The notes: a model not told the origin generated them from the letters alone. Positions 11,087 to 28,436 are shown, numbered from the stretch's first letter. The stretch is DNA of 64,000 nucleotides from an uncultured Anaerolineales bacterium (GCA_964651255.1 CAZYWU010000001.1:131890-195889), one strand, 5' to 3'. Translations and numbers: made by a program.

Positions 11087-11110
11087 GGAAAACCTGTCGG
11101 GGGTATTTGC

Positions 11111-13196: not shown

Positions 13197-16169
13197 CTAC
13201 TCGTTCAGCGTGACCCAGTCTGTGCTCCCACTGTATCCCACCAGCTTGATGCGCACCTTGGCGGCTGTGCCCGCTTCCGGCTCTGTGCCGGTCACAATCA
13301 GCACCTCGTAGGTGCGGACGGCGGGACTAAGTTCGCCGAGGCCCGGGATCGGCTCGAAGACAAAGCTGGGCGGCAGAATCCCGATGATGCCGCCGAGTGA
13401 AAAGGTTGGCGTGGGCCCGGTATACGGTGTGGGCGTCCTGGTAGGTACGGCGGTTCTTGTCGGTGTGGGTGTCGGCAATGCGGCGCACACCATCAGGCTG
13501 CCGTCGTCCTTGTCGGAAGCGATCCAGCGGTCAAACACAAAGGGGATATACCCCGAGTCGCCCGCCACCAGCACCCTGTCCACATACCAATCGGGGCTGT
13601 AGCCTGTGTTGTCGTGTTGCAGGCAGACCTCTTTGTACGTCCCCACAAACTCGCCCGGGATGACAAATCCCCTGGCCTCCGCCGGCCCGAACACCGGTGT
13701 GGGTGTGGGTGTTGTCGTGGGCGAAGGCTGTGGCGTCGGCGAGGGCATATTGGCGATCGCAGCGGCTGTGCCGGCCGCGTCGGCCGTTGCCTGCATGGCT
13801 GCCATGGCAGCCTGCTGTGTGGCTTCTGCCTGGGCCTCTGCGGTCTTGGCCTCGGCAGTGCTCTCAGCAGCGACCGTCTTGCCCTCTGCTGCGACTGTCT
13901 TGGCCTCGTCTGTGCTCGACATCATCATGGCTAGCGCCATCTGGGTCGCGGTTTCCTGTGCTACCTGTGTCTGCTGCCGTTCGCCTCGTGTCTCGGCCGT
14001 CTGGGTGGCATAGACGATCGCCTGGGCGACCGCCGTGGCCTCTGCGGCGCGTTCTTTCTGCCTGTTCGTGTAGGCAAGCCCGATGGCCGCGGCAACGATG
14101 ACCACAAGCGTGGTCAGGAGGGGGATAGCCCAGGTGGGCAGCCAGGGCTTGACCTGGAGAGATGCCTGCGTGGTGGCAATCTGCTCGCCGTTCGCAAGCG
14201 CGGTGATGGCGTAGCTGTGCGTCTCTGGGCTACCCATCAACGCGCGCTTGCCGCGCATGGCGATGGGCAGTGAGACGTCTTTGAGCGTGCCAGCAGGCAC
14301 CGCCACAGGGGAACTCGGTGCGGTCGGCGTCAGGACCTGGTCCGGATCCTCCACAGCTAGAATGATCGATTCGGTAGCGTTGCCCTGGTTGCTGACGGTC
14401 ACGCGTCCCCTGCCAGCGTTGGTGATCGTTCGCGGCGTGACAGAGAGCGAGAGATCGCGGAATGGCTCAACATTCAGGGTGCCGGTGGCAGCCACGCTCT
14501 GCGCGGGTTGTGACTGGGAATAGACCCGGATCGAGTAGGTATGCTCACCAGCGCTGCTGGCAGGGCTCCTGGGCGCTGTGATGCGAATTGTCATCGTGCC
14601 TGCGTCGCCGGGCGCAAGGCGCAGGGGATCCTGTGGCATGGCGACCCACTCGGCGGGGATGCCTTCAATCGAGGGCATGAGATGGTCCACCTGTTGCTGG
14701 CGGTTGAGCAGACGCACCGTGACCACAGCGGGGACGCCAGTGCGAATCCGCTGACTGGGAGGATCCAGTGTCACCTGAATCGGGTCTGCCGCGTCAGCGA
14801 TGGCGCGGGGCGCGTAGGTGGCGGCTCCCGCGGGCGGCTCCGCCGGGGCGTCTGCGCCTGACACGCCCTGAAGCTTGAGCCAGTGATTGCCTATCCGCAC
14901 ACTCTGGGCCGGTCGCCAGGGCTCTGAAACGCCTGGCAGCAGCCGGTTGTCTCCCACCCATGTCCCATTGGTCGAGTTCAGATCGGTGATCTGGAACTTG
15001 CCCTGAGCGATCGTGATCTGCGCGTGGTGGCGCGAGACCTGCGAGTCGGCCAGCGTAATGTCGTTGTCGGGGTCACGGCCGATGGTGATTCTGCGCCGTG
15101 AGCCCAGCGCGAAGGAGCGGGTGGTGCCATCTTCCTGCAGGATGATAATCTGGCCCCCGGGCGTGGCGCTCGAGGGTGGTGTCGGCCAGCGATCCTTCTC
15201 AGGCGGGGGCTGGGGTTGCTCTCTGGACACCATGGTCGCCAGGCTTGCTTTGGGAGCCGGGGTGCCGGCTGTCATCGTGTGCTCGGCCGGCCTGGCGAGC
15301 GAGACCCGCGCGGCGTCGAGCGCCGACCGCAGCTCCCCGGCGTTCTGGTAACGATCGCCGGGTGACTTGGCGAGTGCCTTGAGGATGATCTCCTCTACCT
15401 GGGATGGGATCTCTGGATCCACTGACCGGGGTGGGGGCGGGGGCTCCTTGGTGTGGGCACGGATCGCCTCGGTGAGCGTATGCACCTCAAAGGGCAAGCG
15501 ACCGGTAACCATCTCATAGAGCACGATCCCGAGGGCGTAGATATCGGCTCGCCCGTCGATGTCGCCGCCCTCGCACTGCTCGGGGGCCATGTAGGCCGGG
15601 GTGCCCATGCTGGTGCCCGGCATGCTCATGATGCCGCCCTCGGATAGTTTGGCCAGCCCAAAGTCGGTCAGCATCGGATGAAACCCCAGGCCGAACGGGT
15701 CCGTCTGCCCGGGTTCCAGCGGCCGCAGGATTACGTTTCCCGGTTTGATGTCGCGGTGGAACACGCCCCGCGCATGGGCATAGCCTAGAGCGTCCGAGAC
15801 CTGTTCAACGATGGCGAGTGACTCGGGGAGCGCTAGCACCATCCCTCGCTCACTCAGCAGGTGCAGCCAGTCCTGCAGGTTCTGGCCCGGGATAAAGGCC
15901 ATGACGATATAGAGCAGCGTCGGATCGCGCGAAAAGGCATAGATCTGTACGATGCCCGGATGATCGAGCGCAGCAATCGCGCGCGCCTCTTGCATAAACC
16001 GCTCACGAAATCCCTGCTGCTGGGCGATGTGGCTGTGCATCACCTTGATGGCGACGGCGCGGTTCAGTGCGACATCCTGTGCACGAAACACGGCGCCCAT
16101 GCCGCCCTGCCCCAGGAGCTTTTCTATGCGATAGGTATTGTCCAGGACTGTGCCTACAAGGCCTTCCAT
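13197..16169 (-). CDS. membrane Ser/Thr protein kinase with FHA domain, Ig-like repeats, one TM helix and a PLAT-like C-terminal ectodomain
   Basis: N-terminal Hanks kinase (GQGGMGAVF, HRDIKPGNV, DFGLA). FHA domain (GR...SRHHA...NGT). TM helix WAIPLLTTLVVIVAAAIGLAY. A/T/Q and P/T linkers. C-terminus with HDNTG...W and TG...AGT PLAT-like signatures. True start is the ATG at 16169 with a GGAGAG SD; the ORF beginning at 16337 is over-extended. Confidence 0.85.
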   Translation of the reverse strand: MEGLVGTVLDNTYRIEKLLGQGGMGAVFRAQDVALNRAVAIKVMHSHIAQQQGFRERFMQEARAIAALDHPGIVQIYAFSRDPTLLYIVMAFIPGQNLQDWLHLLSERGMVLALPESLAIVEQVSDALGYAHARGVFHRDIKPGNVILRPLEPGQTDPFGLGFHPMLTDFGLAKLSEGGIMSMPGTSMGTPAYMAPEQCEGGDIDGRADIYALGIVLYEMVTGRLPFEVHTLTEAIRAHTKEPPPPPRSVDPEIPSQVEEIILKALAKSPGDRYQNAGELRSALDAARVSLARPAEHTMTAGTPAPKASLATMVSREQPQPPPEKDRWPTPPSSATPGGQIIILQEDGTTRSFALGSRRRITIGRDPDNDITLADSQVSRHHAQITIAQGKFQITDLNSTNGTWVGDNRLLPGVSEPWRPAQSVRIGNHWLKLQGVSGADAPAEPPAGAATYAPRAIADAADPIQVTLDPPSQRIRTGVPAVVTVRLLNRQQQVDHLMPSIEGIPAEWVAMPQDPLRLAPGDAGTMTIRITAPRSPASSAGEHTYSIRVYSQSQPAQSVAATGTLNVEPFRDLSLSVTPRTITNAGRGRVTVSNQGNATESIILAVEDPDQVLTPTAPSSPVAVPAGTLKDVSLPIAMRGKRALMGSPETHSYAITALANGEQIATTQASLQVKPWLPTWAIPLLTTLVVIVAAAIGLAYTNRQKERAAEATAVAQAIVYATQTAETRGERQQTQVAQETATQMALAMMMSSTDEAKTVAAEGKTVAAESTAEAKTAEAQAEATQQAAMAAMQATADAAGTAAAIANMPSPTPQPSPTTTPTPTPVFGPAEARGFVIPGEFVGTYKEVCLQHDNTGYSPDWYVDRVLVAGDSGYIPFVFDRWIASDKDDGSLMVCAALPTPTPTRTAVPTRTPTPYTGPTPTFSLGGIIGILPPSFVFEPIPGLGELSPAVRTYEVLIVTGTEPEAGTAAKVRIKLVGYSGSTDWVTLNE

Positions 16170-16183
16170 GATCTTCTCTCCGC

Positions 16184-17182
16184 CTAGGTGATCTGGAGCG
16201 TGTAACTTGTGTGCGCCGGGCGATTTACATCGATGATGCGCTCGATGATCCGCCGGTCGATCTCTCGATCCCCGCTGACGATAATCACACGAAAGGTGTG
16301 CGGGCCGTCGACATTTTCCTCTATTCGAACCTCGCATCCCGTGGCGATGCGCAGATGGGTCGATAGCCCGTCAACGGTGCCTCTCGCCTGGTGCAGCCAG
16401 TTGGCTTTGAGCAGCAACTCTCGTTGTGTCTCCGGCGACCAGTGCTCGTCGACCAGATGGGCCATCCAGTCGTTGAGCCACGGCAGGAACGTCTCCGGTG
16501 CGGTATCTGGATTCAGGAACATGTCCCAGTGGGCAACGATCTGCTGGATTGGGCCGATCAGATCCTCAAAGACCAGCAGATAGCGCCCGATAAAGTCCGT
16601 TTGGGCGTATATCGGCGGAAGGTACTGCAGCCAGCGGCTTGCCCGCGATGGCATACCCACCCAGGGCTGAACAGGCGCCGGTCCCATCACGGTGATCGGG
16701 GCCTCTGGCGGCGGGCCAGCGGGGCTCTCCGGTGGTCGCCTGGAGGCGCGCCGGGTACCCAGCCGCTCCAGCATGGCCAGGTCCACGGGGGGCGACTCTA
16801 TTTCTTGCTCAGGCGGCACCTCTGCTTCTGGCGTTTCTTCGTGCGCTGTCATAGAGGGCTCTTCCGTCACAAGCTGCTCAAAGGTCAGGCGGAATGGCCC
16901 GATCGCGATCACATCGCCGGGCTTGAGGGGCCGCGGCTCGTTAGGGGCCAGGGGCAAGTCGTTCAGCTGCGTCCCGTTGCTGCTGCCGAGATCTTCGATC
17001 CGGTACGGTTCGCGATCGCCCAGGATCCTAGCATGAACCCGCGACACCCAGGCGTGAGCAAGAACCAGGCTGGCCTGGGTCGAGTCGCGGCCAATCAGGA
17101 CCAGCGGCTCCTCAATCGTATACTCTCTGGCCGGTTCGTCGGGTGACACGATCACCAGCCTGTAACGAGGTTGCTGAGTCAT
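16184..17182 (-). CDS. CIS baseplate wedge protein, P2 gpI-like (Afp12-type), with N-terminal FHA domain
   Basis: N-terminal FHA (LVLIGRDSTQASLVLAHAWVSRVHARI...SSNGTQLN), a Pro-rich linker, and a C-terminal Tail_P2_I-like domain (FLPWLNDWMAHLVDEHWS...). ATG at 17182, 10 nt after the baseplate-J stop. Confidence 0.75.
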   Translation of the reverse strand: MTQQPRYRLVIVSPDEPAREYTIEEPLVLIGRDSTQASLVLAHAWVSRVHARILGDREPYRIEDLGSSNGTQLNDLPLAPNEPRPLKPGDVIAIGPFRLTFEQLVTEEPSMTAHEETPEAEVPPEQEIESPPVDLAMLERLGTRRASRRPPESPAGPPPEAPITVMGPAPVQPWVGMPSRASRWLQYLPPIYAQTDFIGRYLLVFEDLIGPIQQIVAHWDMFLNPDTAPETFLPWLNDWMAHLVDEHWSPETQRELLLKANWLHQARGTVDGLSTHLRIATGCEVRIEENVDGPHTFRVIIVSGDREIDRRIIERIIDVNRPAHTSYTLQIT

Positions 17183-17192
17183 CTCGTCAGCC

Positions 17193-19178
17193 TCATTCCA
17201 CCATGATCTCGACCTGGTGAATATCGGAAACAACGACCTCGTGCGCCAGCAAGTCGATCTTGCGGTCCGCCTGGTGGGCACGATCCTCGTCGTCGATCCA
17301 ATACATGTCGATGTTCTGAACGTTGAGCAAGCCCTCTACCTTTTGGATACAGCTGTAGAGATCGGAAAGGTACAACTCGCGGCCGAAAGGCCATCCGGTG
17401 CCCGCCGGCCCGCCACGGAGCGGGTTCACGAACCGGTCCAGCGCTGAGCGGATGTCCGCACCCAGGCGCCGTTCATCGACCTCCGGTCGCGCTATGACCT
17501 GTGCGCTGATACGGATGCGCTTGTAGCCTGCAGCCTGTACCTCAAGCTGGGTCGTCAGCAGGCGGCGGGCGTTCAGAAACGCCGTGATCCGCTCCTGGAG
17601 GTCGGATGAAAGCGCCAGCCGGGGCAGGGGAATGTAGTGGGTGGCCTCCTCTTCAGGCAGGTTCGGAATCACGAGCACGTACACCTGGCCAGGGCCACTG
17701 CGGTCCGCTCCCATACCCGCAAAGGCCGTCTGGAGGCAACACACACGGGCAACCTCGCCCTTGAAGGCATCCAGGGTGAGGAACTCATAGTCCTCCGGCG
17801 TGACCGCGCGGTAACGCGATCGCAGCAGGTTGCGGGCCCGAAACATGGCCTGTTCGAGTGTCTCCTGATCCAAACCGCCCTGTGCTGCTGTGCGGTTTGA
17901 GGTGCGGTCGATGTAGGCCAGCGCCGCACGCGGCTCGGTGATCGAGGCTGCCCGCACATTGCCTGCCGTACCGCCGCCATAGCGGTAGCGCGAGAACCGG
18001 AGCTCAGCCCCGCGTGGCGGCAGGGCACCGTAGCGCAACACGGTACCGTCGCGCTGCCGGAGTGCGGGTCCAAAGCGTACCTCGCCGGTCGCGCTGTCCA
18101 GCGCGTAATGACGGTCCTGAGGGCCAGATTCGGCGAGGGTTTCAACCTCCTCCCATGGCTCCCATCCCTCCATGCCCGGCATCCAGATTTCGACGCGCTC
18201 ATCCGCGTGGCGCGGCAGGACGGGCGTGTGTTCCAGATGGAACACTTGGCCAGGAGACCCGTCGCTCCTGCCCAGCGCCTCATTGGCGATTTCTGTGGCA
18301 TGCGAGGCCATCACGGTCGCGCCCCAGGTCACCATTTCCAGACGCCGCAGAATGGGCGAGGTGGCGTAGGGGCGCTGATCTTCGCGCGGCGGCGTCACCT
18401 GACAGCGGATCCAGTAGGCTTCGATGCCATTGATCTCGGAGCGCGACATGACAGGCAGGTGCATCCGGACCTGTCCGGTAAAGCTCATACCGCCGGTCGA
18501 GTCCACCTCAACGTCCGTGTCGCGCCAGCCATTGGCGGTCCATGCCTGCCAGACGATGGGCGGCGATTCGGGGATGATATTCAGTCCCCCGGCCCGCACG
18601 GCAGCCATGTCCAACCCGATATAATGATGGTCCAGATTGACGTCGAACCCGACGTACAGCGCGTCGCCCTCGGCGGGGCGGTCCGGGCTGAATACGGAGA
18701 ACTCGCCGCTCAGCCGGGCCAGGGGCACCTCGTGATAGGCCATGCCGCCGTCGGCGCTGCGATAGCGCGTGACGATGTGCAGCAGCCGGGCGGGGCGGAT
18801 CTCCAGGCTCTCCTCGGTGGTAAAGACTACCGCCTCGCCGCCGGCTCGTGACGTGGCTGTGGCGGTGCCTCGCGGGACCGTGATGGTCTGCTGTTGTGGC
18901 GCGGAGAGGTAAAAGGTCACCGGCACAGAGGCAGCCTGCGGTGGCTCGAGTTGGATGCCCAGCAGGTTGAGCAGTTCGATATAGTGCCGCGCCGGCATCT
19001 GGTTGACCCGGTAGAGCAGGATATCGACCATCCATGCGAACAACTCAATCAGAGTGACGCCCGGGTCGCTGACGTTGTGGTCCGTCCATTCCGGACAATA
19101 CAGCGGGATGCGCCTCTTGGCCTCATCGACCAGGTCCTGAAAGGAGCGATCGTCGAGCGGCTGCGTGGGTAACGGCAT
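17193..19178 (-). CDS. CIS baseplate protein, phage baseplate J / gp6-like (Afp11-type)
   Basis: 661 aa with the N-terminal PLYCPEWTDHNVSDPGVTLIELFAWM motif of the baseplate-J family (TIGR02243-like). Confidence 0.85.
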   Translation of the reverse strand: MPLPTQPLDDRSFQDLVDEAKRRIPLYCPEWTDHNVSDPGVTLIELFAWMVDILLYRVNQMPARHYIELLNLLGIQLEPPQAASVPVTFYLSAPQQQTITVPRGTATATSRAGGEAVVFTTEESLEIRPARLLHIVTRYRSADGGMAYHEVPLARLSGEFSVFSPDRPAEGDALYVGFDVNLDHHYIGLDMAAVRAGGLNIIPESPPIVWQAWTANGWRDTDVEVDSTGGMSFTGQVRMHLPVMSRSEINGIEAYWIRCQVTPPREDQRPYATSPILRRLEMVTWGATVMASHATEIANEALGRSDGSPGQVFHLEHTPVLPRHADERVEIWMPGMEGWEPWEEVETLAESGPQDRHYALDSATGEVRFGPALRQRDGTVLRYGALPPRGAELRFSRYRYGGGTAGNVRAASITEPRAALAYIDRTSNRTAAQGGLDQETLEQAMFRARNLLRSRYRAVTPEDYEFLTLDAFKGEVARVCCLQTAFAGMGADRSGPGQVYVLVIPNLPEEEATHYIPLPRLALSSDLQERITAFLNARRLLTTQLEVQAAGYKRIRISAQVIARPEVDERRLGADIRSALDRFVNPLRGGPAGTGWPFGRELYLSDLYSCIQKVEGLLNVQNIDMYWIDDEDRAHQADRKIDLLAHEVVVSDIHQVEIMVE

Positions 19179-19185: not shown

Positions 19186-19581
19186 CTACTCCTCGGGAAT
19201 CAGATAAAAGGGGTACACCAGGCTGCGGCTGGAATGGGTAGACCGGATTGTATACCTCACATTGATTAACATGCGGGCTGTATCCTCCGGGTCAGGGGAT
19301 GCGGTCACCTGCTCGACCTGGATTCGCGGTTCCCAGCGCCCCAGGGCCAGCCGCACAAAGCGCTCGGCCTGGGCGATGGTCTGTAGATTGTTGGGTGCAA
19401 AGACGATCTCATTCAGCCGGCAGCCGAACTCTGGGCGCATGACGCGCTGGCCGGGGGAGGTCATCAGGATGATGCGGATCGATTCCTCAATCTCCTGCTC
19501 CCCCGACACGGTGGCGATGCGACCGCGATGGTCCAGCCGCGGCGGAAAGGCCCAGCCTCTTCCGATGATATCGTCCGACAC
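19186..19581 (-). CDS. CIS baseplate wedge protein, gp25/GPW lysozyme-like (Afp9-type)
   Basis: 131 aa with the GRGWAFP...RPEFGC motif of GPW_gp25. Confidence 0.85.
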   Translation of the reverse strand: MSDDIIGRGWAFPPRLDHRGRIATVSGEQEIEESIRIILMTSPGQRVMRPEFGCRLNEIVFAPNNLQTIAQAERFVRLALGRWEPRIQVEQVTASPDPEDTARMLINVRYTIRSTHSSRSLVYPFYLIPEE

Positions 19582-19613: not shown

Positions 19614-20018
19614 CTACCCTCCGGCCATGACCGTGCCCGTGGCGATCACGGTTCCGGCCGGGGCCGGGTTGATGTCATCGCAGGTCCGCGCGGAATCCCC
19701 GTTCCGCGCGACTCCCTGACCATTGACCAGCACCGTCGTGCTGCCCATCACAATGGTAGCCAGGTTGGTGGGCGGCACCTGAAAGCTTGGGCCCCCAATA
19801 GGTATGTGCGGCGGCTGGTTCACCGCCGTGCTATTGACCGTGGCGACCGGCATGCCCCCGATCATTACGTTGCTGCTGAGCCCTCCGTTGATCATGCCGT
19901 TGAATGGATGCCCGGGCGTTGGCGTTGGCACAGGACCGCCCGGCGAGGGCACCATCACGATGTGCGTATCCATCGCGGTGACCATGTCCCCCATTTTCGC
20001 GATCGGCTGTGCTGGCAT
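19614..20018 (-). CDS. PAAR-domain spike-tip protein (Afp10-type)
   Basis: 134 aa, Gly/Pro-rich with repeated xxGxP..G blocks and ARNGDS.C, typical of PAAR cones. Confidence 0.75.
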   Translation of the reverse strand: MPAQPIAKMGDMVTAMDTHIVMVPSPGGPVPTPTPGHPFNGMINGGLSSNVMIGGMPVATVNSTAVNQPPHIPIGGPSFQVPPTNLATIVMGSTTVLVNGQGVARNGDSARTCDDINPAPAGTVIATGTVMAGG

Positions 20019-20030: not shown

Positions 20031-21731
20031 CTACGGGTTCAGCTGGATCATGGCACCCTTGATCGTCAGGTTGCCGCTGGCCTCTATTTCCATGTTCGCA
20101 CCAGCCTTGATGCTGACGTTCGTGCCCCCTTCGATCTCCAAGTCACCGTCGCCCTTGATCGTGATCTTTCGCCCATTATCGTCCAGAGATAGTACGGCGC
20201 CGCCCGAGGTCGTAATCTCCACCTTGCCATCATCGTCGTGCAGCACCAGGATGTGACCGCCGGCGGTCTCGATCTGGACAAAGGCCTCGTTTTCCTCCGC
20301 CAGAGTGATCTTGTGTCCCACTCGTGTGACCAGGGCGCGCTGGACGATACTCCCGTTGGCTACTGATGTAGCCCTGTCGATCGGGGTGGCATCCTGGCCG
20401 TTCCAGAGGCCGCCAATCACGACCGGGCGTTCGATGTCTCCCTGCTCAAAAGCCACCAGGACCTCGTCATTGACCTCGGGCAACCAGTAGATGCCACGAT
20501 CCGGACCGGCGCCCGTGCCGATGACGCGCGCCCAGGGGCTGCTCAGGTCCGGGTTCAGCCACGGGAACTTGACCGTGACGCGTCCCATCTCGTCGGGATC
20601 GTTGATATCGGTAACGATACCCGTCATCACTGGCCAGCTTGTACCGGGTCGTACGTCCCTGTCGAGCAGTCGCGCCAGCGTGTCGTCGCGGCGGCCGCGC
20701 ACGGTAAAGTACGTGACATAGTCGCGCTCTGTATTCCACACATGTCTGGCCGTGGTGACCCGATACGTGCCGCTGAACCGGTTCCCCAGCGCGGTGATGT
20801 TCGCCATCTTGCGGGCCTGCAACTCGGGCATGCCAAAGCACTCGCCTTCGGCCTCGACAAAGGCGCCGTCGTACTCGTCCAGTATGGCCTGTGCCAGTTC
20901 ATCCGCCTCGGCCTGGTCCGCGACACTGGTGGCGACAGTCAGCTCGCTGGCACTGCCAAAGACATTCTCTGCCAGGCTGCCGCCCGTGCCTTGCTCTCCG
21001 ATCGATGGCGCGGCCTCGCCCGATGTCGCCCGGCCCACGATCTCGTTTTTCGTGGAAGGGTCCCAGCCCCGCACCTGCACCTCACTGACCTGCTCGCCCA
21101 GGCTGAGGATGGGCCGGAAACTGCGCAGGTTCTCGCCCCACTCAAGATTGACAGTTTCGCCCTGTGCCGTGCCCGCCTTGAAGCAGAGGGTGCGACCCTC
21201 GACATAGACGTCATAGCCGATTCTGCGCGCTCGCTCGCGAAGAAACGCCATGTGGGTTTGGCCGTGCTGGAACACGTGCTTGTGCTCGGTCGATGTCGCC
21301 TCGACGTCCGCGCGCAGCTGCACCTGACTGGCGACATCGGACGCGATGGCGCTGTCGGTCATGTTGGTGTAGGTTCTGGTGATGGCACCGCGATGCAGGC
21401 GATGCGACCGGTCGTAGGCGCGCACCACCAGATCGGCGACTGTGCCCTCGCGAAAGTCAGGCTCGATCCCGGTGATCTCACCGTCAAAGAGCGCGGTCTC
21501 CCCGCGGCCCTGTTCATCAGCGACGCCCACTTCGAGGCTGGCCCCCAGGTCAAAGGGCCCGTTGTTGATCAGCTCGGCCCCCGTGTCGTGCACGTTCAGC
21601 ACACACATTGCCGGGAGCGTCAGGCTGCTCTCGACCTCGACCCGGTAGAGCTCGTCCATGACGGCGGTCTGGAGCGAGGTCCCGTTGATTTTGACATAGA
21701 GTTGTCGACTCAGGGCTGCATCGCGGCTCAC
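20031..21731 (-). CDS. VgrG-like central spike (gp27/gp5 fusion, phage late-control-D-like; Afp8-type)
   Basis: 566 aa with a gpD/VgrG N-terminal region and a C-terminal beta-helix repeat (GGAVLSLDDNGRKITIKGDGDLEIEGGTNVSIKAGANMEIEASGNLTIKG). Confidence 0.9.
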   Translation of the reverse strand: MSRDAALSRQLYVKINGTSLQTAVMDELYRVEVESSLTLPAMCVLNVHDTGAELINNGPFDLGASLEVGVADEQGRGETALFDGEITGIEPDFREGTVADLVVRAYDRSHRLHRGAITRTYTNMTDSAIASDVASQVQLRADVEATSTEHKHVFQHGQTHMAFLRERARRIGYDVYVEGRTLCFKAGTAQGETVNLEWGENLRSFRPILSLGEQVSEVQVRGWDPSTKNEIVGRATSGEAAPSIGEQGTGGSLAENVFGSASELTVATSVADQAEADELAQAILDEYDGAFVEAEGECFGMPELQARKMANITALGNRFSGTYRVTTARHVWNTERDYVTYFTVRGRRDDTLARLLDRDVRPGTSWPVMTGIVTDINDPDEMGRVTVKFPWLNPDLSSPWARVIGTGAGPDRGIYWLPEVNDEVLVAFEQGDIERPVVIGGLWNGQDATPIDRATSVANGSIVQRALVTRVGHKITLAEENEAFVQIETAGGHILVLHDDDGKVEITTSGGAVLSLDDNGRKITIKGDGDLEIEGGTNVSIKAGANMEIEASGNLTIKGAMIQLNP

Positions 21732-21747: not shown

Positions 21748-22407
21748 CTATTCCATCGGCGGGATGATGATCAGCCGTCCGGTGCGCAGGTGCAAAGGAT
21801 CGTCTATCCCGTTGGCCTGGGCGATCTGTCGCCACTTGGTGCTGTCTCCGTACGCGTCATAGGCGATGAGATCGAGCCGGTCGCCCGCATCGAGCATGCG
21901 TGTGGTCGGGGCGATCCCGCCCCCGGACGTGGGGTTCTGCCCCAGAATGTCAAAGGCATCGCTCACCTGCTGCAGGCTGATCTGGATCGTGCTGCGCACC
22001 GCGGTACCGGAGGGCAGAAACAGGCCGATCTGCTCGCTCATCTGCGTGATGACCGCCTCAAAGGAAAAGGCGCCCCAGATAAACATGCAATGGGGCGGTT
22101 CACTCTTGCCCGTGCGCGGGTCCGTGCGCGCGTCGTCTACCATCATCATGTTCCAGAGATGCGCTGTCAGAGAGCGGACATCCTGGCCCGCGTCCAGTGT
22201 GTCAAAGAGCAAGCGCAATGTCAGAGTCTGAGCGCCGCCCTGCTGGAACCGGATGTGCGGGATGTTCTTGCCTTTGGTATCTGCCTGCTCGTAAGAGTTA
22301 GTCTTGGCGATGGTGTACTCGTACGGGTTGAACATGCAGGGCACAGACTCCCCCGTGTTCTTGTTCACGAGCACTGCGGGCGCCAGACCTCCTCGTGTTG
22401 TCGGCAT
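21748..22407 (-). CDS. CIS tube-initiator / LysM-domain protein (Afp7 / P2 gpX-U-like)
   Basis: N-terminal PCMFNPYEYTI motif and a C-terminal LysM (DRLDLIAYDAYGDSTKWRQIAQANGIDDP). Confidence 0.85.
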   Translation of the reverse strand: MPTTRGGLAPAVLVNKNTGESVPCMFNPYEYTIAKTNSYEQADTKGKNIPHIRFQQGGAQTLTLRLLFDTLDAGQDVRSLTAHLWNMMMVDDARTDPRTGKSEPPHCMFIWGAFSFEAVITQMSEQIGLFLPSGTAVRSTIQISLQQVSDAFDILGQNPTSGGGIAPTTRMLDAGDRLDLIAYDAYGDSTKWRQIAQANGIDDPLHLRTGRLIIIPPME

Positions 22408-22421: not shown

Positions 22422-24503
22422 TTAGCGCAGGCGCGAGCCACCCATGCGCTCACGCTCCACACGCAAACGATCTCTCAGCTTGCTGAACACACGTTCCGCC
22501 AGTTCTTCGATATCCGGAGCCCGTTCCGCTTGCGGAGACTCTTCAGATTCTGCCGGGGCAGTCTCCGTAGAGGAATCTGCGCGGGTTGTATCCGCGGGCG
22601 CCTCGGCGCGCCGGATAGGCGGGCCCGGCGAGTCCCCTCGATCTCGTGTAACGCGAGTTGGTGCAGCCATGGATGCGACCACCTGATCGATAGGCAGTAC
22701 CTGCCTCGGAAGTGGGTGGGGAGCGCCGGGCGTCAACCTCTGTTGCTCAGCCGTAGCCAGTTGGGCAGGGGTGCGGTCCGGGAAACCGGTCTGCCTGCGC
22801 ACAGGCGGATGTTGCGATGTCGGCGTCACGGCGGACAAGGCAGATCCTCCTGCTGAGGCTGGCGGCGTCTGGGCCGGCGGTACCTCCTGTACCCATTGCG
22901 CCGACTCGCGCGGTGACCGCGGCTGGATCGGAGGCGCGCTGGAGGGCGGGAGCTGTGCTATAGCTGGCTCAGGCCAGGGCGGTATCGTCTCAGGCTCGGT
23001 GCTCGCCTCAGTCGCAAAGCGCTGCAACTGCGCCCGGTAAGCCTCGGCCAGATCCAAGCTCGCAGGGACGCTCTGCACAGGAGCATGTTCCGAACCGGGT
23101 GCCCGCCGTTGTTCGGCCGCTGCGGTGACGGCTGGTGCCTGCACATCGGGACTGCGCCTCACAACCGGCTTTACTGGAGGCGCGTCGGGTTCGACCGCGG
23201 GCTCAAACGATGGTGCCTCCGGTCTGGTCAATGCGCCTTCTGGTGTCTCTGGGAGCGCCGCGGCAGCGGCCCGGATATGGTGTAAAGCATCTCTCTGTTC
23301 TACCCGCGCTGGCGACGGCTCGATGGCGTCAGACTGCAGCGTAACGGCTGGCGCGGGCGCCATGGGCATCTCGGGAATGGGCTCGCTATCGCTTGGCACA
23401 GGCTGCGTATCCGCCGGTCGTGCCACCTGCTCGCGCGTCGCCTCAGGCGTGGCGGTGGGGCCGGCGGGAGCAGATCTCTCTTCAGGTGCACGGTAGACCG
23501 CCTGTGCCCGGGAGATCGCCTCGGACTCGCGCCGCAGCGGTTGCGCGGAGCTAGATGCGTCCGAGGGGCCCGCCGTTCCAGTCTCCGCCGGCGGCGGCGT
23601 CTCGGCCGTCGTGTCCGCAAGATCAGTCGCGGGCCTTACTGGCACGCCTGGCGTCCCAGTATCGAAATCCGGCACAGCCGTCTCGCGCCTCACGGTCTGG
23701 GAAGTCGTTGGACCCTGCCCCTGGGGCGATACGGTTGCCTCTGTCGTCGAAACCGTGCTCTGCGTTTCCGCGGTACGCCGGATCAGTGGCGCTGCGAGCT
23801 GAGAGGTCGGCCTGTCCGCTGTGCCCTCGGCACGGGCTGGCCCTCGTGCCGCCTGTGTTCGGACCGTGTCCGTTGGCGTGCCCGCTTGTTGTGCCGGAGG
23901 CTGTTCATAGAGCTGCGAGACGGGTTTGGGCCGCGCCCCGGGCGCGGGAGGCGTGGCAGATGCCGTTGCGGAGGGCCGCGCGCCTCCTCGTGCCTGCCCA
24001 GCGGCCTGCGTACCTGGTGAGGCCTGGCTTGATGCCGGCGACCGGGGCCGCTGGAGCGCTCGCCGTACCTCTTCCACGGTAAAGCCGGGCCGTGGTGGGG
24101 CCAGAGGTTCCGAAGCTGGCTCTGCGTCCGGTGAGAGGGGACCCCCATCTCTCGCGCCCAGGGCGGACACCGCGCCCGTGAATCCTGACTGGTGGCCACG
24201 ACCGCGCTCAAGTATCTCTACTTCCGGAGTCATGAGCGCCAGCGCAGGGGATTGAGATGGTTCTGTGGCCGGTGCAGAGGCGGGCCTGGCCGGCTCGATG
24301 GTGCGCTCGATGACCGGTGACACGCGCGCCGGCGTTGGCTCGGCAATGCTCTGCACGACTGGATGCCTTGTCAGCGTCATGGGGGTATATCGCGTGGCCT
24401 GCCGCTGCAGAGGCCCGGGTTCCGGCTCCGGTATGATGTACCGGCGCTTGATATGCCGGGCGAAAGCCACGCTGACAAGTCGCAGGCCGTTCCCGTCTGT
24501 CAT
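22422..24503 (-). CDS. proline/alanine/threonine-rich low-complexity protein in the tape-measure (Afp14) position
   Basis: 693 aa. Position between tube 2 and the LysM protein matches the P2-like tube–tape-measure–U/X order. ATG overlaps the tube-2 stop (ATGA). Only the short N- and C-termini look non-repetitive. Confidence 0.5.
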   Translation of the reverse strand: MTDGNGLRLVSVAFARHIKRRYIIPEPEPGPLQRQATRYTPMTLTRHPVVQSIAEPTPARVSPVIERTIEPARPASAPATEPSQSPALALMTPEVEILERGRGHQSGFTGAVSALGARDGGPLSPDAEPASEPLAPPRPGFTVEEVRRALQRPRSPASSQASPGTQAAGQARGGARPSATASATPPAPGARPKPVSQLYEQPPAQQAGTPTDTVRTQAARGPARAEGTADRPTSQLAAPLIRRTAETQSTVSTTEATVSPQGQGPTTSQTVRRETAVPDFDTGTPGVPVRPATDLADTTAETPPPAETGTAGPSDASSSAQPLRRESEAISRAQAVYRAPEERSAPAGPTATPEATREQVARPADTQPVPSDSEPIPEMPMAPAPAVTLQSDAIEPSPARVEQRDALHHIRAAAAALPETPEGALTRPEAPSFEPAVEPDAPPVKPVVRRSPDVQAPAVTAAAEQRRAPGSEHAPVQSVPASLDLAEAYRAQLQRFATEASTEPETIPPWPEPAIAQLPPSSAPPIQPRSPRESAQWVQEVPPAQTPPASAGGSALSAVTPTSQHPPVRRQTGFPDRTPAQLATAEQQRLTPGAPHPLPRQVLPIDQVVASMAAPTRVTRDRGDSPGPPIRRAEAPADTTRADSSTETAPAESEESPQAERAPDIEELAERVFSKLRDRLRVERERMGGSRLR

Positions 24504-24931
24504 GACACCGTCACCATCTCGTAGGCCAGTTCCAGAGATTCTATCGCGATCGCGGAACTGCCCGCACTGAGCTCGGGCCCGCTCCACTTGGTGGGAAAGG
24601 CCATGTGAAAGTCCCAGCGGATAACTGGCTCACCGGCGTCGTCCAACAGCGTCACCGACACCTGCTTACGGGCCGCCATCAGCTGGCCCTGAATCACCTG
24701 GGTGTACCAGGCCATCAGGTCGCTGCCGGTGGCCACGCCTCGTTTGAGCGTCAGCGTGCCTCGGCGAACGCGCCCGGGCAGAGGGTGCGATCCCACGTTA
24801 TAGCCGCCCTCTTTCTGCTCCTGGATCTCTACCTCCAGTGCCGGGAGGGTGCATTCGGTGAATGTCGCTCCCGGAAGACCGTCGATCTGGACGCTAAAGC
24901 GATAGGCGGGATGGGCATCCGGACGTTCCAT
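24500..24931 (-). CDS. CIS inner tube protein, paralog 2 (Afp5/T4 gp19-like)
   Basis: 143 aa with YRFSVQIDGL...FTECT..., homologous to the tube protein at 25459-25902. Confidence 0.85.
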   Translation of the reverse strand: MERPDAHPAYRFSVQIDGLPGATFTECTLPALEVEIQEQKEGGYNVGSHPLPGRVRRGTLTLKRGVATGSDLMAWYTQVIQGQLMAARKQVSVTLLDDAGEPVIRWDFHMAFPTKWSGPELSAGSSAIAIESLELAYEMVTVS

Positions 24932-25089
24932 CAGGTCCCGACCTCATTGGTGTGAATTCTGTCGACCTCGCGCACCCATCGCCGGCGCTCGGGATGTTCG
25001 AGTGACAGGATGTCGTCCCGTGACCAGTGCAAGTAATAGGCCAGGTACGCTACCTCCTCGAGCATCCGGTCGAGGGGGTAGCGCGTCAT
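24931..25089 (-). CDS. 52-aa conserved-looking microprotein, translationally coupled between the 119-aa ORF and tube 2
   Basis: The internal ATG at 25089 overlaps the stop of the upstream ORF (ATGA). Its own stop overlaps the tube-2 ATG (TGATG). The longer 69-aa ORF in the track would overlap the upstream gene by 55 nt. Confidence 0.4.
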   Translation of the reverse strand: MTRYPLDRMLEEVAYLAYYLHWSRDDILSLEHPERRRWVREVDRIHTNEVGT

Positions 25090-25445
25090 TCCCCCAGTGG
25101 CACGATCTCCTGTCGAAAGACCGTATGACAGTTCGGGCATTCCACCTCGATCGTATCGGCGCCGGTCTCGTTGATACGCCTGTAAAAGTCTTGCAGGTAG
25201 GCCATATCTGCGGCGAACAGGTTTTCGATGACATGAGGGGTCACCTGGTCCAGACTGCCCAGGCGAGTGACGACGCGCGACAGCAGCAGTATCGCCAGGT
25301 AAGCCTCGTTAGATCGCACGCGCATGTCCCGGAGCGGGGCGATCTCATCCATTGCCGTGGCCAGCCTCATCACGCCCTGGCGATGGACCCGCCCCTCTCC
25401 GTCGACGTACCCGCGCGGAAGCTCGAAGGGGAACTCTGTCTGCAT
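25086..25445 (-). CDS. 119-aa CIS-associated hypothetical protein (Afp6-position) with C-terminal CPNC zinc-ribbon-like motif
   Basis: Located between the two tube genes. GGAGG SD 5 nt before the ATG. No confident family assignment. Confidence 0.55.
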   Translation of the reverse strand: MQTEFPFELPRGYVDGEGRVHRQGVMRLATAMDEIAPLRDMRVRSNEAYLAILLLSRVVTRLGSLDQVTPHVIENLFAADMAYLQDFYRRINETGADTIEVECPNCHTVFRQEIVPLGE

Positions 25446-25458: not shown

Positions 25459-25902
25459 CTAGCTTACGCGGAATAGGCCCTCATGGGTGATCACGAGCTC
25501 CTCGACCCCCAGCTCATTGCTATCCGCCTTGATGGACGGACCGGACACCTTGACTGGCCAGGCTTTCTCAAAGTTCCAGCGGGCCACCTCGTTCAGGCCC
25601 TGGTCGAACATGATGATCGATCCCTCACGGCGGGCCTCGTCGACCTTGCCCTGAACGACCAACTCACGCCAGTCCCAGATGTCCATGTTGTCGGTGATAC
25701 CGCGCTTGAGCGTGATGTTCTCCCATTTGAGCCGGCCGGGGATTTTGAGCACATGCTCTCGCCCGGCTTCATCGACGACCTTGTGCTCGATCACCTCGTT
25801 CTCGGAGCCGATGCCGGAGCACTCGGTAAAGTACCCGGTGACCTCGCCCGCAACATCAATCGCATAGTGAAAACCAACAAGCGGATCTTTTCGGTCCGTC
25901 AT
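25459..25902 (-). CDS. CIS inner tube protein, paralog 1 (Afp1/T4 gp19-like)
   Basis: 147 aa, FHYAIDVAGEVTGYFTECSG...LKRG, the classic eCIS/T6SS-Hcp-like tube signature. Confidence 0.9.
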   Translation of the reverse strand: MTDRKDPLVGFHYAIDVAGEVTGYFTECSGIGSENEVIEHKVVDEAGREHVLKIPGRLKWENITLKRGITDNMDIWDWRELVVQGKVDEARREGSIIMFDQGLNEVARWNFEKAWPVKVSGPSIKADSNELGVEELVITHEGLFRVS

Positions 25903-25938: not shown

Positions 25939-27504
25939 CTAGGCCGCGGCGGGCCCCGCCCACTGGCTGATACGGAAGATCACAAACTCCGCCGGCTTGA
26001 CCGGGCAGATGCCGATCTCGATGATCAACTGGCCCAGGTCGCGCACTTCGACCGGATTCAGTTCCTCATCGCACTTTACATAAAACGCCTCATTGGGGGT
26101 TGTGCCAAAGAGTGCGCCGGATGTCCACACTGTACGCAGGAAGGCCGTCACATCGCGCCTGACGCGCGCCCAGAGGTCCGGGTCGTTAGGCTCAAAGACG
26201 ACCCACTGTGTGCCGCGCTCGATGGATTCCTCCACCATGTTAAAGAGGCGACGCACATTGATGTATCGCCACGCCGGATCGCTGCTCAGCGTGCGGGCGC
26301 CCCAGATGCGGATTCCGCGGCCGGGGAAGGCACGGATGCAGTTCACCCCGATGGGGTTCAGCGCATCCTGCTCGCCTCGGGTGAGCTGAACCGGAAGGCC
26401 AGTGGCGCCGCGGATCACCTCGTTGGCCGGGGCCTTGTGCACCCCGCGCTCGGCATCGCTGCGCGCATAGACACCCGCAATGTGGCCAGAAGGCGGAATG
26501 CGGATGCTCCCCTTACCCTTGACCATATCTGCGGTCTCGATCCAGGGATAGTACAGCGCAGCGTACTTGGTATCATAGTTGCTGGACTGGCGCCACTGCA
26601 GCATCGCCTGAGGACTGAGATCGGGCGGGCAGTCCAGAATAGCAAAGCTGTACTTGCTCTGCTCGCAGTGCTCGTACAGCGCCTGCTGTACCGCCTGGAC
26701 ATCCTGCAGCGACATCTCGCCAGACTGGAAGCTCTGCATCAGGTCCGGCACCGCCACCATCGTGACCTCGTCTACGGGCGTGAGGCCACCCAGCCCGGTG
26801 CGTTCTGCCACTTCGCCCCGATAGGCCGCCACGGTGAGCGCTTTGGTCTCGATCTTGCCGCCCTGCAGGGTATACTCGCCGGCGCGCGGTCTGCGCTCCG
26901 CCAGTGTGCCCTTGCTTTGCTGCACCTGCACCGTGATGAACCGAGACCGCGTATTGACCACCGTCTCGACATTCTGATCGCCCTTGCCCAGAGTTAGATC
27001 CTGAAAGGTCTCTGTACCGCCGGGAGCTGAGATGATCAGCGTAAAGGTCTCGGCGGCCGGGTCCTCAGGCTCGCGCACTGTGACCTTGATCTCGTTGCCG
27101 CTCGGGCCGCCAGACCTGGCCTTGATCTGAAGCGTGTCGCCGCCGCCTTCCGCGCGCGCCGGTAGTGCCGCGACAGCCGGCGTGGCCAGCCGTTCGTCCA
27201 CAGAGGCGCCCAGTGCCTTGACAGAGACTACGTAGCAGCGACTACCCCCGTTCGCAAAGTAACCATAGACCGAATAGGGCAGGTAGGCCCCCTCGACAAA
27301 CCCACCGAATTTGTCGGTGTACTGGGTCCAGTTGGTGATGGCCACGGGGCGATTCTGGAGCGAGGTCACCTCGCCATTGCTGACTTCCTCAGCCTTTTCG
27401 GTAAAGCCGATAAAGGCTGCGACAGCCGTGCCCACGGCCTCGATGGGCCGGGTTCCGCCCTCACGTTCTTCGATGTAAACACCAGGTGACAGATAAGTTG
27501 GCAT
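25939..27504 (-). CDS. contractile sheath protein (Afp2-4 / phage tail sheath family)
   Basis: Starts MPTYLSPGVYIEE (the ATG at 27504 is preceded by AGGA). 521 aa. Only one sheath gene is present in the locus. Confidence 0.9.
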   Translation of the reverse strand: MPTYLSPGVYIEEREGGTRPIEAVGTAVAAFIGFTEKAEEVSNGEVTSLQNRPVAITNWTQYTDKFGGFVEGAYLPYSVYGYFANGGSRCYVVSVKALGASVDERLATPAVAALPARAEGGGDTLQIKARSGGPSGNEIKVTVREPEDPAAETFTLIISAPGGTETFQDLTLGKGDQNVETVVNTRSRFITVQVQQSKGTLAERRPRAGEYTLQGGKIETKALTVAAYRGEVAERTGLGGLTPVDEVTMVAVPDLMQSFQSGEMSLQDVQAVQQALYEHCEQSKYSFAILDCPPDLSPQAMLQWRQSSNYDTKYAALYYPWIETADMVKGKGSIRIPPSGHIAGVYARSDAERGVHKAPANEVIRGATGLPVQLTRGEQDALNPIGVNCIRAFPGRGIRIWGARTLSSDPAWRYINVRRLFNMVEESIERGTQWVVFEPNDPDLWARVRRDVTAFLRTVWTSGALFGTTPNEAFYVKCDEELNPVEVRDLGQLIIEIGICPVKPAEFVIFRISQWAGPAAA

Positions 27505-27605
27505 CTCTCTATCCTTTGACTGATAGCAGGCCGGGGACATGACCGGCGTGCGACGAGGTCCACTGGTCCGGAGCTATAGAGCGATACCCTCCTTTCTTGT
27601 GGTGG

Positions 27606-28436
27606 CTATATCTCGAGGTCGTATGATTCCAGGCTTTGCGGCGGCACGGGCACGCGGTGCGTCGCCTCGCGGCCATCCGCCTGCACTCGGAGCCGGTATT
27701 CTCCGCCCGATAGCCCACCAAAGCGATAGCGTCCAAAGTGGTCGGTGAGGCAAGTCTGCCCCGTCTCTATCACGCTAACTGTGGCCCTGGGTACAGCAGG
27801 GCCACCCCTGGCCTGAAAAACGATGCCCGCGATCTCAAAGGTCGTCGACCGCGTAGCTTCGGCAGCATTGCGGTCAAGAACATCCACGCGCCGAGAGATG
27901 ACCCACGGGCTCGTAAAGGCCACGGCACGCTCCATGGCCAACGTGACTGTATAGTTGATCGAGGGCCTGAGCTGGTTCTCCATGACGCCCCAGAGATCGG
28001 GCAGGTTCTCGATGGCGCGCGAAGGCTGAGCGGTTCGCGCGTGCACCGGATAGGGCTGATTGCGCAGGCCGGGCTCAAGGATTTCCGTGTCCAGCGTCGG
28101 CGTGCCAGCCAGCGCACCAAGCACGCGCCACAGTATCGCGTGTTCATCCTCCACCTGATTCTGCGTCCAGACGGTGACCAGGTACGAGAGATCGTAGCGC
28201 AGAGGCGCCAGCCGCTTGCTGACCTGGCCTTCAGAATCACGCTCGACGATCCACTCTTGTGAACGAAGCTCCGTATTCTCCCGTATGTCGTACAGGTAAA
28301 AGTTGATCGTCGGGCGCGTCAGTCCAGCAGCCCAGTCGCCGGTGGGCTGGTCAAAGCTCACCGTGACACTGTCCGTGTCAAAGTTGCCGTGCTTTAGCAC
28401 CAGATTCCGGATGGTCTCGTCGAGCTGATTGATCAT
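27606..28436 (-). CDS. CIS tail terminator/cap, DUF4255 (Afp16/Pvc16-like) with carboxypeptidase-regulatory-like C-terminal domain
   Basis: N-terminal LTRPTINFYLYDI DUF4255 signature. C-terminal GIVFQARGG...GRYRFGGLSGGEYRLRV beta-sandwich. Confidence 0.8.
   Translation of the reverse strand: MINQLDETIRNLVLKHGNFDTDSVTVSFDQPTGDWAAGLTRPTINFYLYDIRENTELRSQEWIVERDSEGQVSKRLAPLRYDLSYLVTVWTQNQVEDEHAILWRVLGALAGTPTLDTEILEPGLRNQPYPVHARTAQPSRAIENLPDLWGVMENQLRPSINYTVTLAMERAVAFTSPWVISRRVDVLDRNAAEATRSTTFEIAGIVFQARGGPAVPRATVSVIETGQTCLTDHFGRYRFGGLSGGEYRLRVQADGREATHRVPVPPQSLESYDLEI

Follow-up and report, generated by a model that had tools for sequence, protein, structure and literature searches.

The gene at positions 16184 to 17182 (minus strand) of the window, by which we mean the whole 64,000-nucleotide stretch of DNA analyzed here (uncultured Anaerolineales bacterium, GCA_964651255.1 CAZYWU010000001.1:131890-195889), encodes a protein that joins a phosphothreonine-binding FHA domain to Cis12, the gpI-like wedge subunit of a contractile injection system (CIS) baseplate. 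The FHA domain of this protein, FHA-Cis12, has a complete predicted phosphothreonine pocket, and the gene is followed by one for a single-pass membrane Ser/Thr kinase. We consider it probable that the FHA domain couples the baseplate to Ser/Thr kinase signaling. An earlier note on this DNA had described the fusion; the kinase neighbor goes unmentioned there. The two genes and their parts are as follows, with the evidence in parentheses.

16184..17182, minus strand: FHA-Cis12 gene, 332 amino acids, consisting of FHA domain, disordered linker, and gpI/Cis12 wedge domain (Pfam, NCBIfam, AlphaFold2)
16874..17164, minus strand: FHA domain, amino acids 7–103, with canonical phosphothreonine pocket (Pfam E=4.6e-17, alignment, AlphaFold2, Foldseek)
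16643..16873, minus strand: flexible Pro/Glu-rich linker, amino acids 104–180 (AlphaFold2 local confidence score, pLDDT, <50; low identity; ratio of nonsynonymous to synonymous substitution rates, dN/dS, 0.29)
16187..16642, minus strand: gpI/Cis12 core domain, amino acids 181–332 (Tail_P2_I E=4.1e-13; TIGR02242 82.7 bits; 9gtp_E)
13197..16169, minus strand: single-pass membrane Ser/Thr kinase, 990 amino acids (Pfam, transmembrane (TM) scan, synteny)
15345..16133, minus strand: catalytic domain of the kinase, with intact VAIK (K42), HRD (D140), DFG (D169), and APE motifs (Pfam, alignment)
15234..15236, minus strand: Thr312 (SLATM motif) in the disordered kinase-to-FHA linker, a candidate phospho-acceptor and FHA docking site (alignment)
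14868..15116, minus strand: the kinase's own FHA domain, with GR, SR-H-H, and STNGT motifs (Pfam)
14145..14852, minus strand: predicted cytoplasmic immunoglobulin (Ig)-like "mid" region of the kinase (FixG_C-like match; phmmer)
14064..14132, minus strand: sole predicted TM helix of the kinase, amino acids ~680–702 (Kyte-Doolittle scan)
13200..14063, minus strand: presumed extracytoplasmic part of the kinase, with an Ala/Thr/Gln-rich stretch, Pro/Thr linkers, and a permuted PLAT domain (Pfam)

The mechanical open reading frame (ORF) of FHA-Cis12 extends over 16184..17281 (minus strand) from a GTG at 17281, while the true start is the in-frame ATG at 17182 (MTQQPRY...) and the stop is the TAG at 16184–16186, yielding a product of 332 amino acids. 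This ATG is located 10 nucleotides past the stop of the upstream Baseplate_J gene and has a GAGG before it. Homologs begin at the equivalent Met, and gene callers on independent assemblies arrived at the identical 332-amino acid product. The ORF contains neither a frameshift nor an internal stop. A frameshift that splits two separate genes, which the earlier note had named as a point that would argue against the fusion, or any other two-gene artifact is ruled out by the single ORF, by the identical protein on 12 contigs (four locations displayed, from separate sequencing runs), and by the recurrence of the architecture in homologs. The 12 contigs, together with an architecture common to many clusters, likewise exclude an assembly artifact.

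Both halves of the protein were recognized by profile searches, as the note had described. The Pfam FHA model (PF00498) matched amino acids 28–95 over its entire length (profile positions 1–67 of 67; E=4.6e-17; 62.7 bits, cut-off 20.7), and Tail_P2_I (PF09684) matched amino acids 206–317 (E=4.1e-13; 49.8 bits, cut-off 20.6). Among NCBIfam models, tail_TIGR02242 (82.7 bits, cut-off 51.85) and tail_P2_I TIGR01634 (34.6 bits, cut-off 30.05) exceeded their thresholds. The long Cis12 equivalog CIS12_fam (NF053768, 715 positions) scored 63.3 bits, below its cut-off of 860, with the match confined to the common core (model positions 472–570). An AlphaFold2 model built on 26 homologs had pLDDT values of 90–97 for the FHA β-sandwich, below 50 for most of amino acids 107–208, and 81–95 for the C-terminal helical and β domain, in keeping with two folded parts and the Pro-rich linker claimed in the note.

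The FHA signature, which the note had given as GR...SR.H...NGT, occurs in the protein as G31-R32, S47-R48-x-H50, and S67-S68-N69-G70-T71. These residues presumably lie in the loops through which FHA domains touch the phosphate and the backbone of the peptide. All of them (G31, R32, S47, R48, H50, S67, S68, N69, G70, and T71) are invariant among 26 homologs that share 36–76% identity, and the invariance extends to clades in which the neighboring gene is pseudokinase-like or in which there is no adjacent kinase. Between the protein and its ortholog in locus L008 (92% identical, synonymous divergence dS ~0.47), the FHA domain has a dN/dS of 0.073 and the Cis12 core one of 0.046, whereas the linker reaches 0.29. 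Across the family, the mean identities of these three parts to the window protein are 55%, 56%, and 28%, respectively. As both sets of values are close for the two folded parts, the FHA domain is constrained to the same degree as the structural domain. A Foldseek search with the AlphaFold2 model aligned the FHA part to the FHA domains of GarA and OdhI (target TM-score 0.84–0.91, rmsd 1.3–1.6 Å), and the NCBIfam model FhaB_Rv0019c gave a partial match to FHA-Cis12. Pfam Yop-YscD_cpl, which represents domains of the type III secretion system (T3SS) type, matched the FHA part less well (E=4.4e-12; 46.5 bits, versus 62.7 bits for FHA).

The C-terminal half is a complete Cis12, as judged from its match to nearly the whole of the Cis12 of the Streptomyces coelicolor CIS (CISSc). 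The family profile matched residues 22–181 of the 190 residues of that protein (PDB 9GTP, chain E; E=1.5e-23), and Foldseek recovered the same baseplate entry, 9GTP, from the model (E=2.6e-7). A weaker match was obtained to pyocin R2 Tri2 (PA0619; E=1.9e-4). Chain E is present in six copies per baseplate in 9GTP, in line with the description in the CISSc paper of one Cis12 per wedge. Comparison of the sequences indicates that the FHA domain and linker are an N-terminal addition absent from Streptomyces Cis12. The linker amounts to ~80–100 residues between the FHA domain and the core, with 19% Pro over amino acids 105–205, and its length varies from ~50 to 290 amino acids among homologs. No Ser or Thr in it is conserved across the alignment.

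One short stretch of the otherwise variable linker is conserved as the motif G-[LV]-x-[VL]-R-x-A-[PS], located in the window at 16745–16768 (minus strand; amino acids ~139–146, LGTRRASR). It is kept in most of the aligned family and is not evident in a long-linker clade (P0068–P0074). The motif may be a linear binding motif or an N-terminal strand that touches Cis11.

FHA-Cis12 is a large family, found mostly in Chloroflexota as far as the sequences searched extend. The two-domain architecture was found in ~74 clusters at 90% identity and, with the gpI domain alone as query, in 100 of the best 150 representatives at 50% identity. The gpI-domain relatives came from an exhaustive HMMER search; a word-indexed protein search with the gpI domain gave four matches. 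Such proteins are annotated in public databases either as "phage tail protein I" or as "FHA domain-containing protein". Scanning GTDB species, each represented by one genome, with the peptide pattern S[RS]WLQYLP[PAY] yielded 31 loci, all 31 in Chloroflexota metagenome-assembled genomes (MAGs), mostly Anaerolineae or Anaerolineales. The fusion is present in 30 of the 31, which answers affirmatively the earlier note's question of whether homologous CIS loci carry FHA fusions as well. Because the peptide pattern favors this clade, the restriction to Chloroflexota in the scan is a lower bound on the range of the family; one FHA-Cis12 cluster is labeled Myxococcota.

Between the stop codon of Cis12 and the start of the kinase gene lie 14 nucleotides. 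A GGAG resembling a Shine-Dalgarno sequence precedes the start, and the kinase gene is apparently translationally coupled to FHA-Cis12. The domain order of the kinase is Pkinase (amino acids 13–275), linker, FHA (amino acids 352–434), Ig-like, TM, and PLAT, with Pfam matches to Pkinase (E=4.3e-45), FHA (E=1.1e-17), FixG_C Ig-like (E=1.9e-6), and PLAT (E=1.9e-9); two Ig-like regions of the FixG_C type are present. The catalytic motifs make the kinase domain active-looking. In the linker between the kinase and FHA domains, the Thr at position 312 is kept in 21 of 26 aligned kinase sequences, while the surrounding linker is variable. No kinase or FHA ORF beyond these came up when the whole window was searched by phmmer with its own domains.

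A kinase-FHA-Ig gene recurs next to the fusion in most of the genomes that could be assessed, namely those with fusion loci having at least 1.9 kb of downstream sequence (n=26), the ORFs of which were searched with the window's own domains. In 22 of these 26 species genomes, such a gene lies at most 1 kb beyond the end of FHA-Cis12, and the kinase gene is found likewise in L006 and L007, among the 40 loci fetched (L001–L040). L039 has an ORF with a kinase-like N-terminus after FHA-Cis12; a 574-amino acid FHA-Cis12 from a MAG labeled Myxococcota is followed, with a 4-nucleotide overlap, by an ORF that starts like a kinase. In L036 a DUF4157 gene separates Cis12 from the kinase, and similar gaps of ~0.9–1 kb occur in L017 and L027–L030. 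In each of the 22 genome loci with a kinase, the downstream kinase gene includes the Ig-like mid region. The neighbor's cytoplasmic module (kinase, FHA, and Ig-like) is conserved, whereas the part after the TM helix varies by lineage, being PLAT, TSP3 repeats, SH3_3, or no recognizable domain. A conserved cytoplasmic module combined with a variable post-TM part is the pattern expected of a receptor kinase.

Three further observations were made on the genes at this position. The PLAT domain of the window kinase appears to be circularly permuted (window 13200–13730, the C-terminal ~175 amino acids). In its natural order it matched profile positions 54–112 with 43.6 bits, and with its last 41 residues moved to the front it matched positions 1–112 with 53.6 bits; the two pieces are joined by a Pro/Thr-rich linker. 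In L027–L030 (Ca. Flexifilum breve and relatives), the neighbor is a giant protein of at least 1660–1690 amino acids (about 7580–12842), and the Ca. Flexifilum protein contains a canonical kinase, three FHA domains, a degenerate second kinase (HRALSPTS, and TEF for DFG), a fourth FHA domain, and an Ig-like region. In L005, L019, L022, L024, and L036, the slot after the baseplate genes holds DUF4157/eCIS_core proteins or ORFs with DUF4157-like N-terminal motifs; L019, for instance, has one of 1152 amino acids, and L022 has several short paralogs. Such proteins are described as toxin-associated in an eCIS survey (Geller 2021; eCIS, extracellular CIS).

FHA-Cis12 and the kinase are the last genes of a minus-strand operon that runs from 31315 to 13197, from the Cis15 ATPase to the kinase. 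The other genes of the operon, in order of transcription, are as follows.

29192..31315, minus strand: AAA+ ATPase, Cis15 (Pfam)
28506..29195, minus strand: DUF4157/eCIS_core protein (Pfam)
27606..28436, minus strand: cap, Pvc16_N/Cis16 (Pfam)
25939..27540, minus strand: sheath, Cis2 (Pfam; CISSc sheath, 8bky/9gtp, E=1.8e-160)
25459..25902, minus strand: tube, Cis1 (Pfam)
25086..25445, minus strand: 119-amino acid protein of unknown function with a C-terminal CxxC, between the two tube genes (no family match above threshold)
24500..24931, minus strand: second tube-like protein, gp19 family (Pfam)
22422..24587, minus strand: low-complexity Pro/Ala/Thr-rich protein of up to 721 amino acids, start codon uncertain; probable tape measure (position only)
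21748..22407, minus strand: Cis7, CIS_tube with a weak LysM match (Pfam)
20031..21731, minus strand: VgrG-like spike, Cis8 (Pfam)
19614..20018, minus strand: PAAR protein, Cis10 (Pfam)
19186..19581, minus strand: Cis9, gp25-like (Pfam)
17193..19178, minus strand: Cis11, Baseplate_J/gpJ-like wedge (Pfam; TIGR02243 E=1.4e-133; 9gtp E=2.5e-141)

The eCIS core set is complete, with sheath, tube, Cis7, spike, PAAR, gp25, Cis11, Cis12, Cis16 cap, and Cis15 ATPase. FHA-Cis12 closes the phage-tail-type gene series, and the order gp25, Cis11, Cis12 is the same in the window and in all 40 loci fetched. Every ORF between 13197 and 31315 was accounted for, and none is fiber-like by Pfam or NCBIfam; a gene for the fiber Cis13 is absent from the operon. 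The note's description of FHA-Cis12 as the product of the last structural gene in a locus devoid of a fiber gene is therefore accurate. The sheath is closest to that of S. coelicolor (E=1.8e-160), followed by 8bl4/9gts (9.7e-158) and 9ezm (3.6e-108), with tCIS, PVC, and AFP at 1e-56 or weaker. Cis11 matched CISSc Cis11 in 9gtp over its full length (E=2.5e-141), the next best solved system reaching 7.5e-6. The machine, known here from its genes, is a fiberless CIS of the Streptomyces CISSc type.

The 721-amino acid protein has no Pfam or NCBIfam match and is not fiber-like. From its position it is probably the tape measure, and L005–L007 have a gene without a Pfam match at the equivalent position. 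Genes for proteins of 121–128 amino acids occupy the position of the 119-amino acid CxxC protein in L006 and L007. The operon is flanked by housekeeping genes (pyrimidine synthesis, LarB/C/E-like functions, MobB, and a glycosyltransferase), which places the locus on the chromosome. A calcineurin-like phosphoesterase gene at 746–1684 was not counted as part of the system, being located ~11.5 kb from the cluster amid housekeeping genes.

Some relatives lack the FHA domain. The sole related locus found with an FHA-less Cis12 (186 amino acids) is in a MAG of class Chloroflexia (L035:5941-8249), where the downstream gene encodes a 478-amino acid PKD-domain protein and no kinase. Among the 150 closest gpI-domain representatives, 16 have FHA-free N-terminal extensions of 90–205 amino acids (a subset of P0134–P0265). 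Pfam searches of these 16 and of P0077, a PASTA-Cis12 from the first protein search, recovered Tail_P2_I and Phage_Mu_Gp48; the only other matches were one to PASTA and a weak one to Response_reg (E=2.6e-4). A CIS of a different lineage (L040:8001-15003, Logan SRR12684511, 59% GC) has a Cis12 with PASTA in place of FHA. This gene is followed by one for a 517-amino acid protein of unknown function and then by genes for three FHA proteins, of 139 amino acids, 751 amino acids (weak or faint NHL and Vgb_lyase matches), and 492 amino acids (two FHA domains and an SLT lytic transglycosylase), with no kinase found in the 17 kb. L040 suggests that phospho-signaling modules have been recruited beside Cis12 more than once, and the N-terminus of Cis12 may be where added modules are generally attached.

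The explanation that we favor overall, and to which we give a somewhat better than even chance, is that phosphorylation gates the docking or firing of the machine at the membrane by way of the tethered FHA domain. By homology with CISSc and its one Cis12 per wedge, each baseplate would carry six tethered FHA domains. A cue would reach the membrane kinase, possibly through the ectodomain, and the kinase would autophosphorylate, with Thr312 in the SLATM motif and the activation-loop threonines (MPGTSMGTP) as candidate sites. The baseplate FHA domains would then capture the kinase phosphothreonines and recruit a free cytoplasmic particle to the membrane baseplate-first, where contraction would be licensed or triggered. 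The kinase would thereby take the role of CisA, which is encoded in the same post-baseplate slot in CISSc, with the addition of a phosphorylation switch, and would form a functional analog of the PpkA-Fha1/TssL pathway of type VI secretion systems (T6SS). The polarity in which Cis12-FHA reads the kinase is favored by the lack of a conserved Ser or Thr in the Cis12 linker, which for the same reason disfavors the reverse, namely that the FHA domain of the kinase reads a phosphorylated Cis12 linker. The specific version in which the baseplate docks on the kinase and docking promotes firing falls a little short of an even chance. We put forward somewhat more tentatively a receptor-kinase-gated intracellular machine, in which the variable ectodomain would sense an external or envelope cue, autophosphorylation would dock the six FHA tethers, and the particle would be captured and fired at that place.

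Phosphorylation might act earlier, at an assembly checkpoint like that of TagH/Fha1, with the FHA domain bringing the kinase to nascent baseplates, or the baseplate to the kinase, so that phosphorylation controls whether and where particles are built. The conserved kinase neighbor and intact pocket fit such a checkpoint equally well, phosphorylated CIS proteins could be ligands of the FHA domain within the kinase, and TagH promotes T6SS assembly after PpkA activation (PMC13584744). On the other side, the lack of conserved Ser/Thr in the Cis12 linker argues weakly against it, as does the behavior of CISSc, whose particles assemble free in the cytoplasm and require CisA for contraction rather than assembly (PMC12237407). 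We regard an assembly checkpoint as unlikely, while recognizing that sequence data by themselves cannot separate control of assembly from control of docking or firing. Control could also have the opposite sign, the FHA domain acting as a safety lock that holds the baseplate on a constitutively phosphorylated partner or CIS component until dephosphorylation under stress frees it to fire. The same architecture and synteny are compatible with this, and negative control would make sense for cytoplasmic CIS of this type, which have been linked to stress-induced cell death. That the locus encodes no phosphatase, that the known FHA-kinase control of contractile machines (in T6SS) is activating, and that six flexible tethers would seem to suit capture better than a rigid lock make a safety lock improbable.

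Two further explanations were considered. The FHA domain might be a phospho-independent structural adaptor, as in T3SS proteins of the YscD/EscD type, and bind the Ig-like region of the neighbor or form a ring under the baseplate. The Yop-YscD_cpl match has this sense, as do neighbors that look like pseudokinases and loci without a kinase. However, the generic FHA model outscores Yop-YscD_cpl, and the closest structural matches, GarA and OdhI, are proven phosphothreonine readers. Phospho-independent FHA-like domains such as that of YscD have lost the phosphothreonine-contacting residues, whereas these are invariant throughout the FHA-Cis12 family, including its kinase-less and pseudokinase clades, and we consider a purely structural role quite improbable. 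Least credible, to the point of being hardly worth entertaining, is a released extracellular particle with FHA in place of a fiber as the target binder. The presence of eCIS core genes (DUF4157/eCIS_core, Cis16 cap, and Cis15 ATPase) and the lack of a fiber gene would be in keeping with release, but FHA ligands are phosphoproteins and intracellular, the nearest solved relative is the cytoplasmic, fiberless CISSc, and the kinase, as the conserved partner, belongs to the producer cell.

A number of observations weigh against phosphorylation-gated docking or firing through the tethered FHA domain. The 22 of 26 loci with a kinase are not independent events, since the synteny is inherited within one lineage. 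A subclade (L019, L022–L024, and L005) has no adjacent kinase, although its FHA pocket is intact; the downstream genes there encode DUF4157/eCIS_core proteins or have no Pfam match. The kinase is thus not always encoded in cis. In another clade (L006, L031–L034, and L038), the neighbor has HES or HQS for the catalytic HRD, with VALK and DFG retained, and by these motifs is likely a pseudokinase scaffold. These neighbors are at L006:11290-14052 and at about 7290–10070 in L031–L034 and L038, and the FHA-Cis12 proteins there are 420–437 amino acids in length. Pfam identified no PP2C phosphatase in the cluster or flanking genes, unlike the T6SS pathway. The residue at +3 of Thr312 is unconserved, which weakens the case for a defined FHA docking motif. 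Lastly, the flanks of the TM helix (window 14040–14140) have one Lys before the helix and RQKER after it. As this breaks the positive-inside rule, the N-in/C-out topology rests only on the requirement that the kinase be cytoplasmic.

The earlier note had proposed that docking or firing is controlled by phosphorylation rather than by receptor contact. The kinase 14 nucleotides downstream, its recurrence in 22 of 26 genomes, and the invariant pocket favor the idea of phosphorylation control. The exclusion of receptor contact is too strong, as the lineage-variable extracytoplasmic domain of the kinase could itself act as a receptor. The note had also proposed that the phospho-peptide reader takes up the baseplate position that normally carries the fiber, and this is not supported. 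Absence of the fiber is a trait of the whole lineage, shared with the FHA-less Streptomyces CISSc, so FHA did not replace it; furthermore, the FHA domain is on a long N-terminal tether, and in Anabaena tCIS it is Cis11 that contacts the fiber-like Cis13.

How fiberless cytoplasmic CIS such as CISSc and tCIS find the membrane and time their firing is an open question, with CisA known to be required (PMC12237407). The FHA-Cis12 family offers a tractable system in this respect, having a defined reader on a defined baseplate subunit and a kinase next door. Point mutants in FHA R32/S47, kinase K42/D140, and Thr312 have predictable effects, and a natural comparison set is available in loci with an active-looking kinase, a likely pseudokinase, or no adjacent kinase, and in the one locus with an FHA-less Cis12. 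Should phosphorylation-gated docking be correct, phosphothreonine control would extend from proteobacterial T6SS to another CIS class and phylum, and would provide a modular route to engineered CIS particles that dock on command. If the FHA domain is a structural adaptor only, the finding shrinks to a lineage-specific decoration. We found no link of FHA or Ser/Thr kinases to Cis12 or to a non-T6SS CIS in the open full-text literature, a search with most subscription-journal papers outside it; the literature covered comprised eCIS surveys (Geller 2021, a 2025 metagenome landscape, and a 2026 receptor-binding-domain catalog) and the CISSc and tCIS structure papers. The concept is not unprecedented, given the T6SS threonine phosphorylation pathway.

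Among known systems, CISSc is the closest to the machine of the window, with a similar Cis12 core, Cis11, and sheath and likewise no fiber gene. CISSc Cis12 is 190 amino acids in length, and its gpI core (residues 22–181) leaves no space for an FHA domain, whereas the window Cis12 has an FHA tether. In both systems, the baseplate genes are directly followed by the gene for a single-pass membrane protein whose N-terminal, cytoplasmic part is large. In CISSc this is CisA (SCO4242), which is described as unstructured in its N-terminal region and as having a C-terminal domain of substrate-binding-like type, with no kinase or FHA domain reported; in the window, the slot is occupied by kinase-FHA-Ig-TM-PLAT. 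For CisA, contact with the baseplate by way of the cytoplasmic N-terminal part is a prediction (PMC12237407).

Anabaena tCIS provides a precedent for membrane-anchoring modules on Cis12. As described in the structural study, an extra domain of its Cis12 forms a connector from baseplate to membrane, and the fiber-like Cis13 is contacted by a C-terminal extension of Cis11, not by Cis12 (PMC8894136). The tCIS Cis12 (All3315) thus resembles the window Cis12 in bearing an added module. Its extension (amino acids 610–1100) is thought to touch the membrane directly or via an unknown protein, and has no FHA domain or link to phosphorylation. Unlike the window, tCIS has a fiber-like Cis13, and this has a TM helix.

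The order gp25, gpJ, gpI is common to the window, phage P2, pyocin, and T6SS, and Tail_P2_I and TIGR01634 score above their cut-offs on FHA-Cis12. P2 gpI (139-position NCBIfam and Pfam models) and pyocin Tri2 (177 amino acids) are short, core-only proteins with no signaling domain, and their baseplates carry fibers. The corresponding T6SS protein, TssG, to our knowledge has no signaling domain either. By both sequence and fold, the nearest relatives of the FHA domain are actinobacterial FHA proteins that act with Ser/Thr kinases, GarA/OdhI with PknB/PknG and FhaB/FipA (GarA E about 5e-18). These established phosphothreonine readers dock on phosphorylated kinases and work as small free-standing proteins in the regulation of metabolism or cell division, outside contractile machines.

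The nearest functional parallel is the T6SS threonine phosphorylation pathway (PpkA/TagE, PppA/TagG, and Fha1/TagH), which like the window has a membrane Ser/Thr kinase and an FHA reader in a contractile-machine cluster. TagH/Fha1 binds phosphothreonine on PpkA in Pseudomonas or on TssL in Agrobacterium and thereby activates the machine (PMC13584744). FHA-Cis12 itself is not a TagH, its single match to TIGR03354 covering model positions 18–169 of 420 with 39.7 bits against a cut-off of 120.25. Pfam searches of the cluster genes found no T6SS core (TssJLM or TssK families), and the cluster has a single phage-type sheath in place of the TssB/C pair, a Pvc16 cap, a putative tape measure, and eCIS_core. 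The window machine is a CIS of the Afp/PVC/CISSc type in Chloroflexota, as opposed to the proteobacterial T6SS, and while TagH is free-standing, the FHA domain of the window is covalently part of a wedge subunit, and the kinase gene takes the place at which a CisA or fiber gene would be expected. Were the receptor-kinase-gated machine to exist as outlined, the kinase ectodomain would do the target-sensing job of fibers from inside the cell, and FHA-Cis12 and its kinase would amount to the threonine phosphorylation pathway of T6SS invented anew and independently in Chloroflexota, with covalent wiring.

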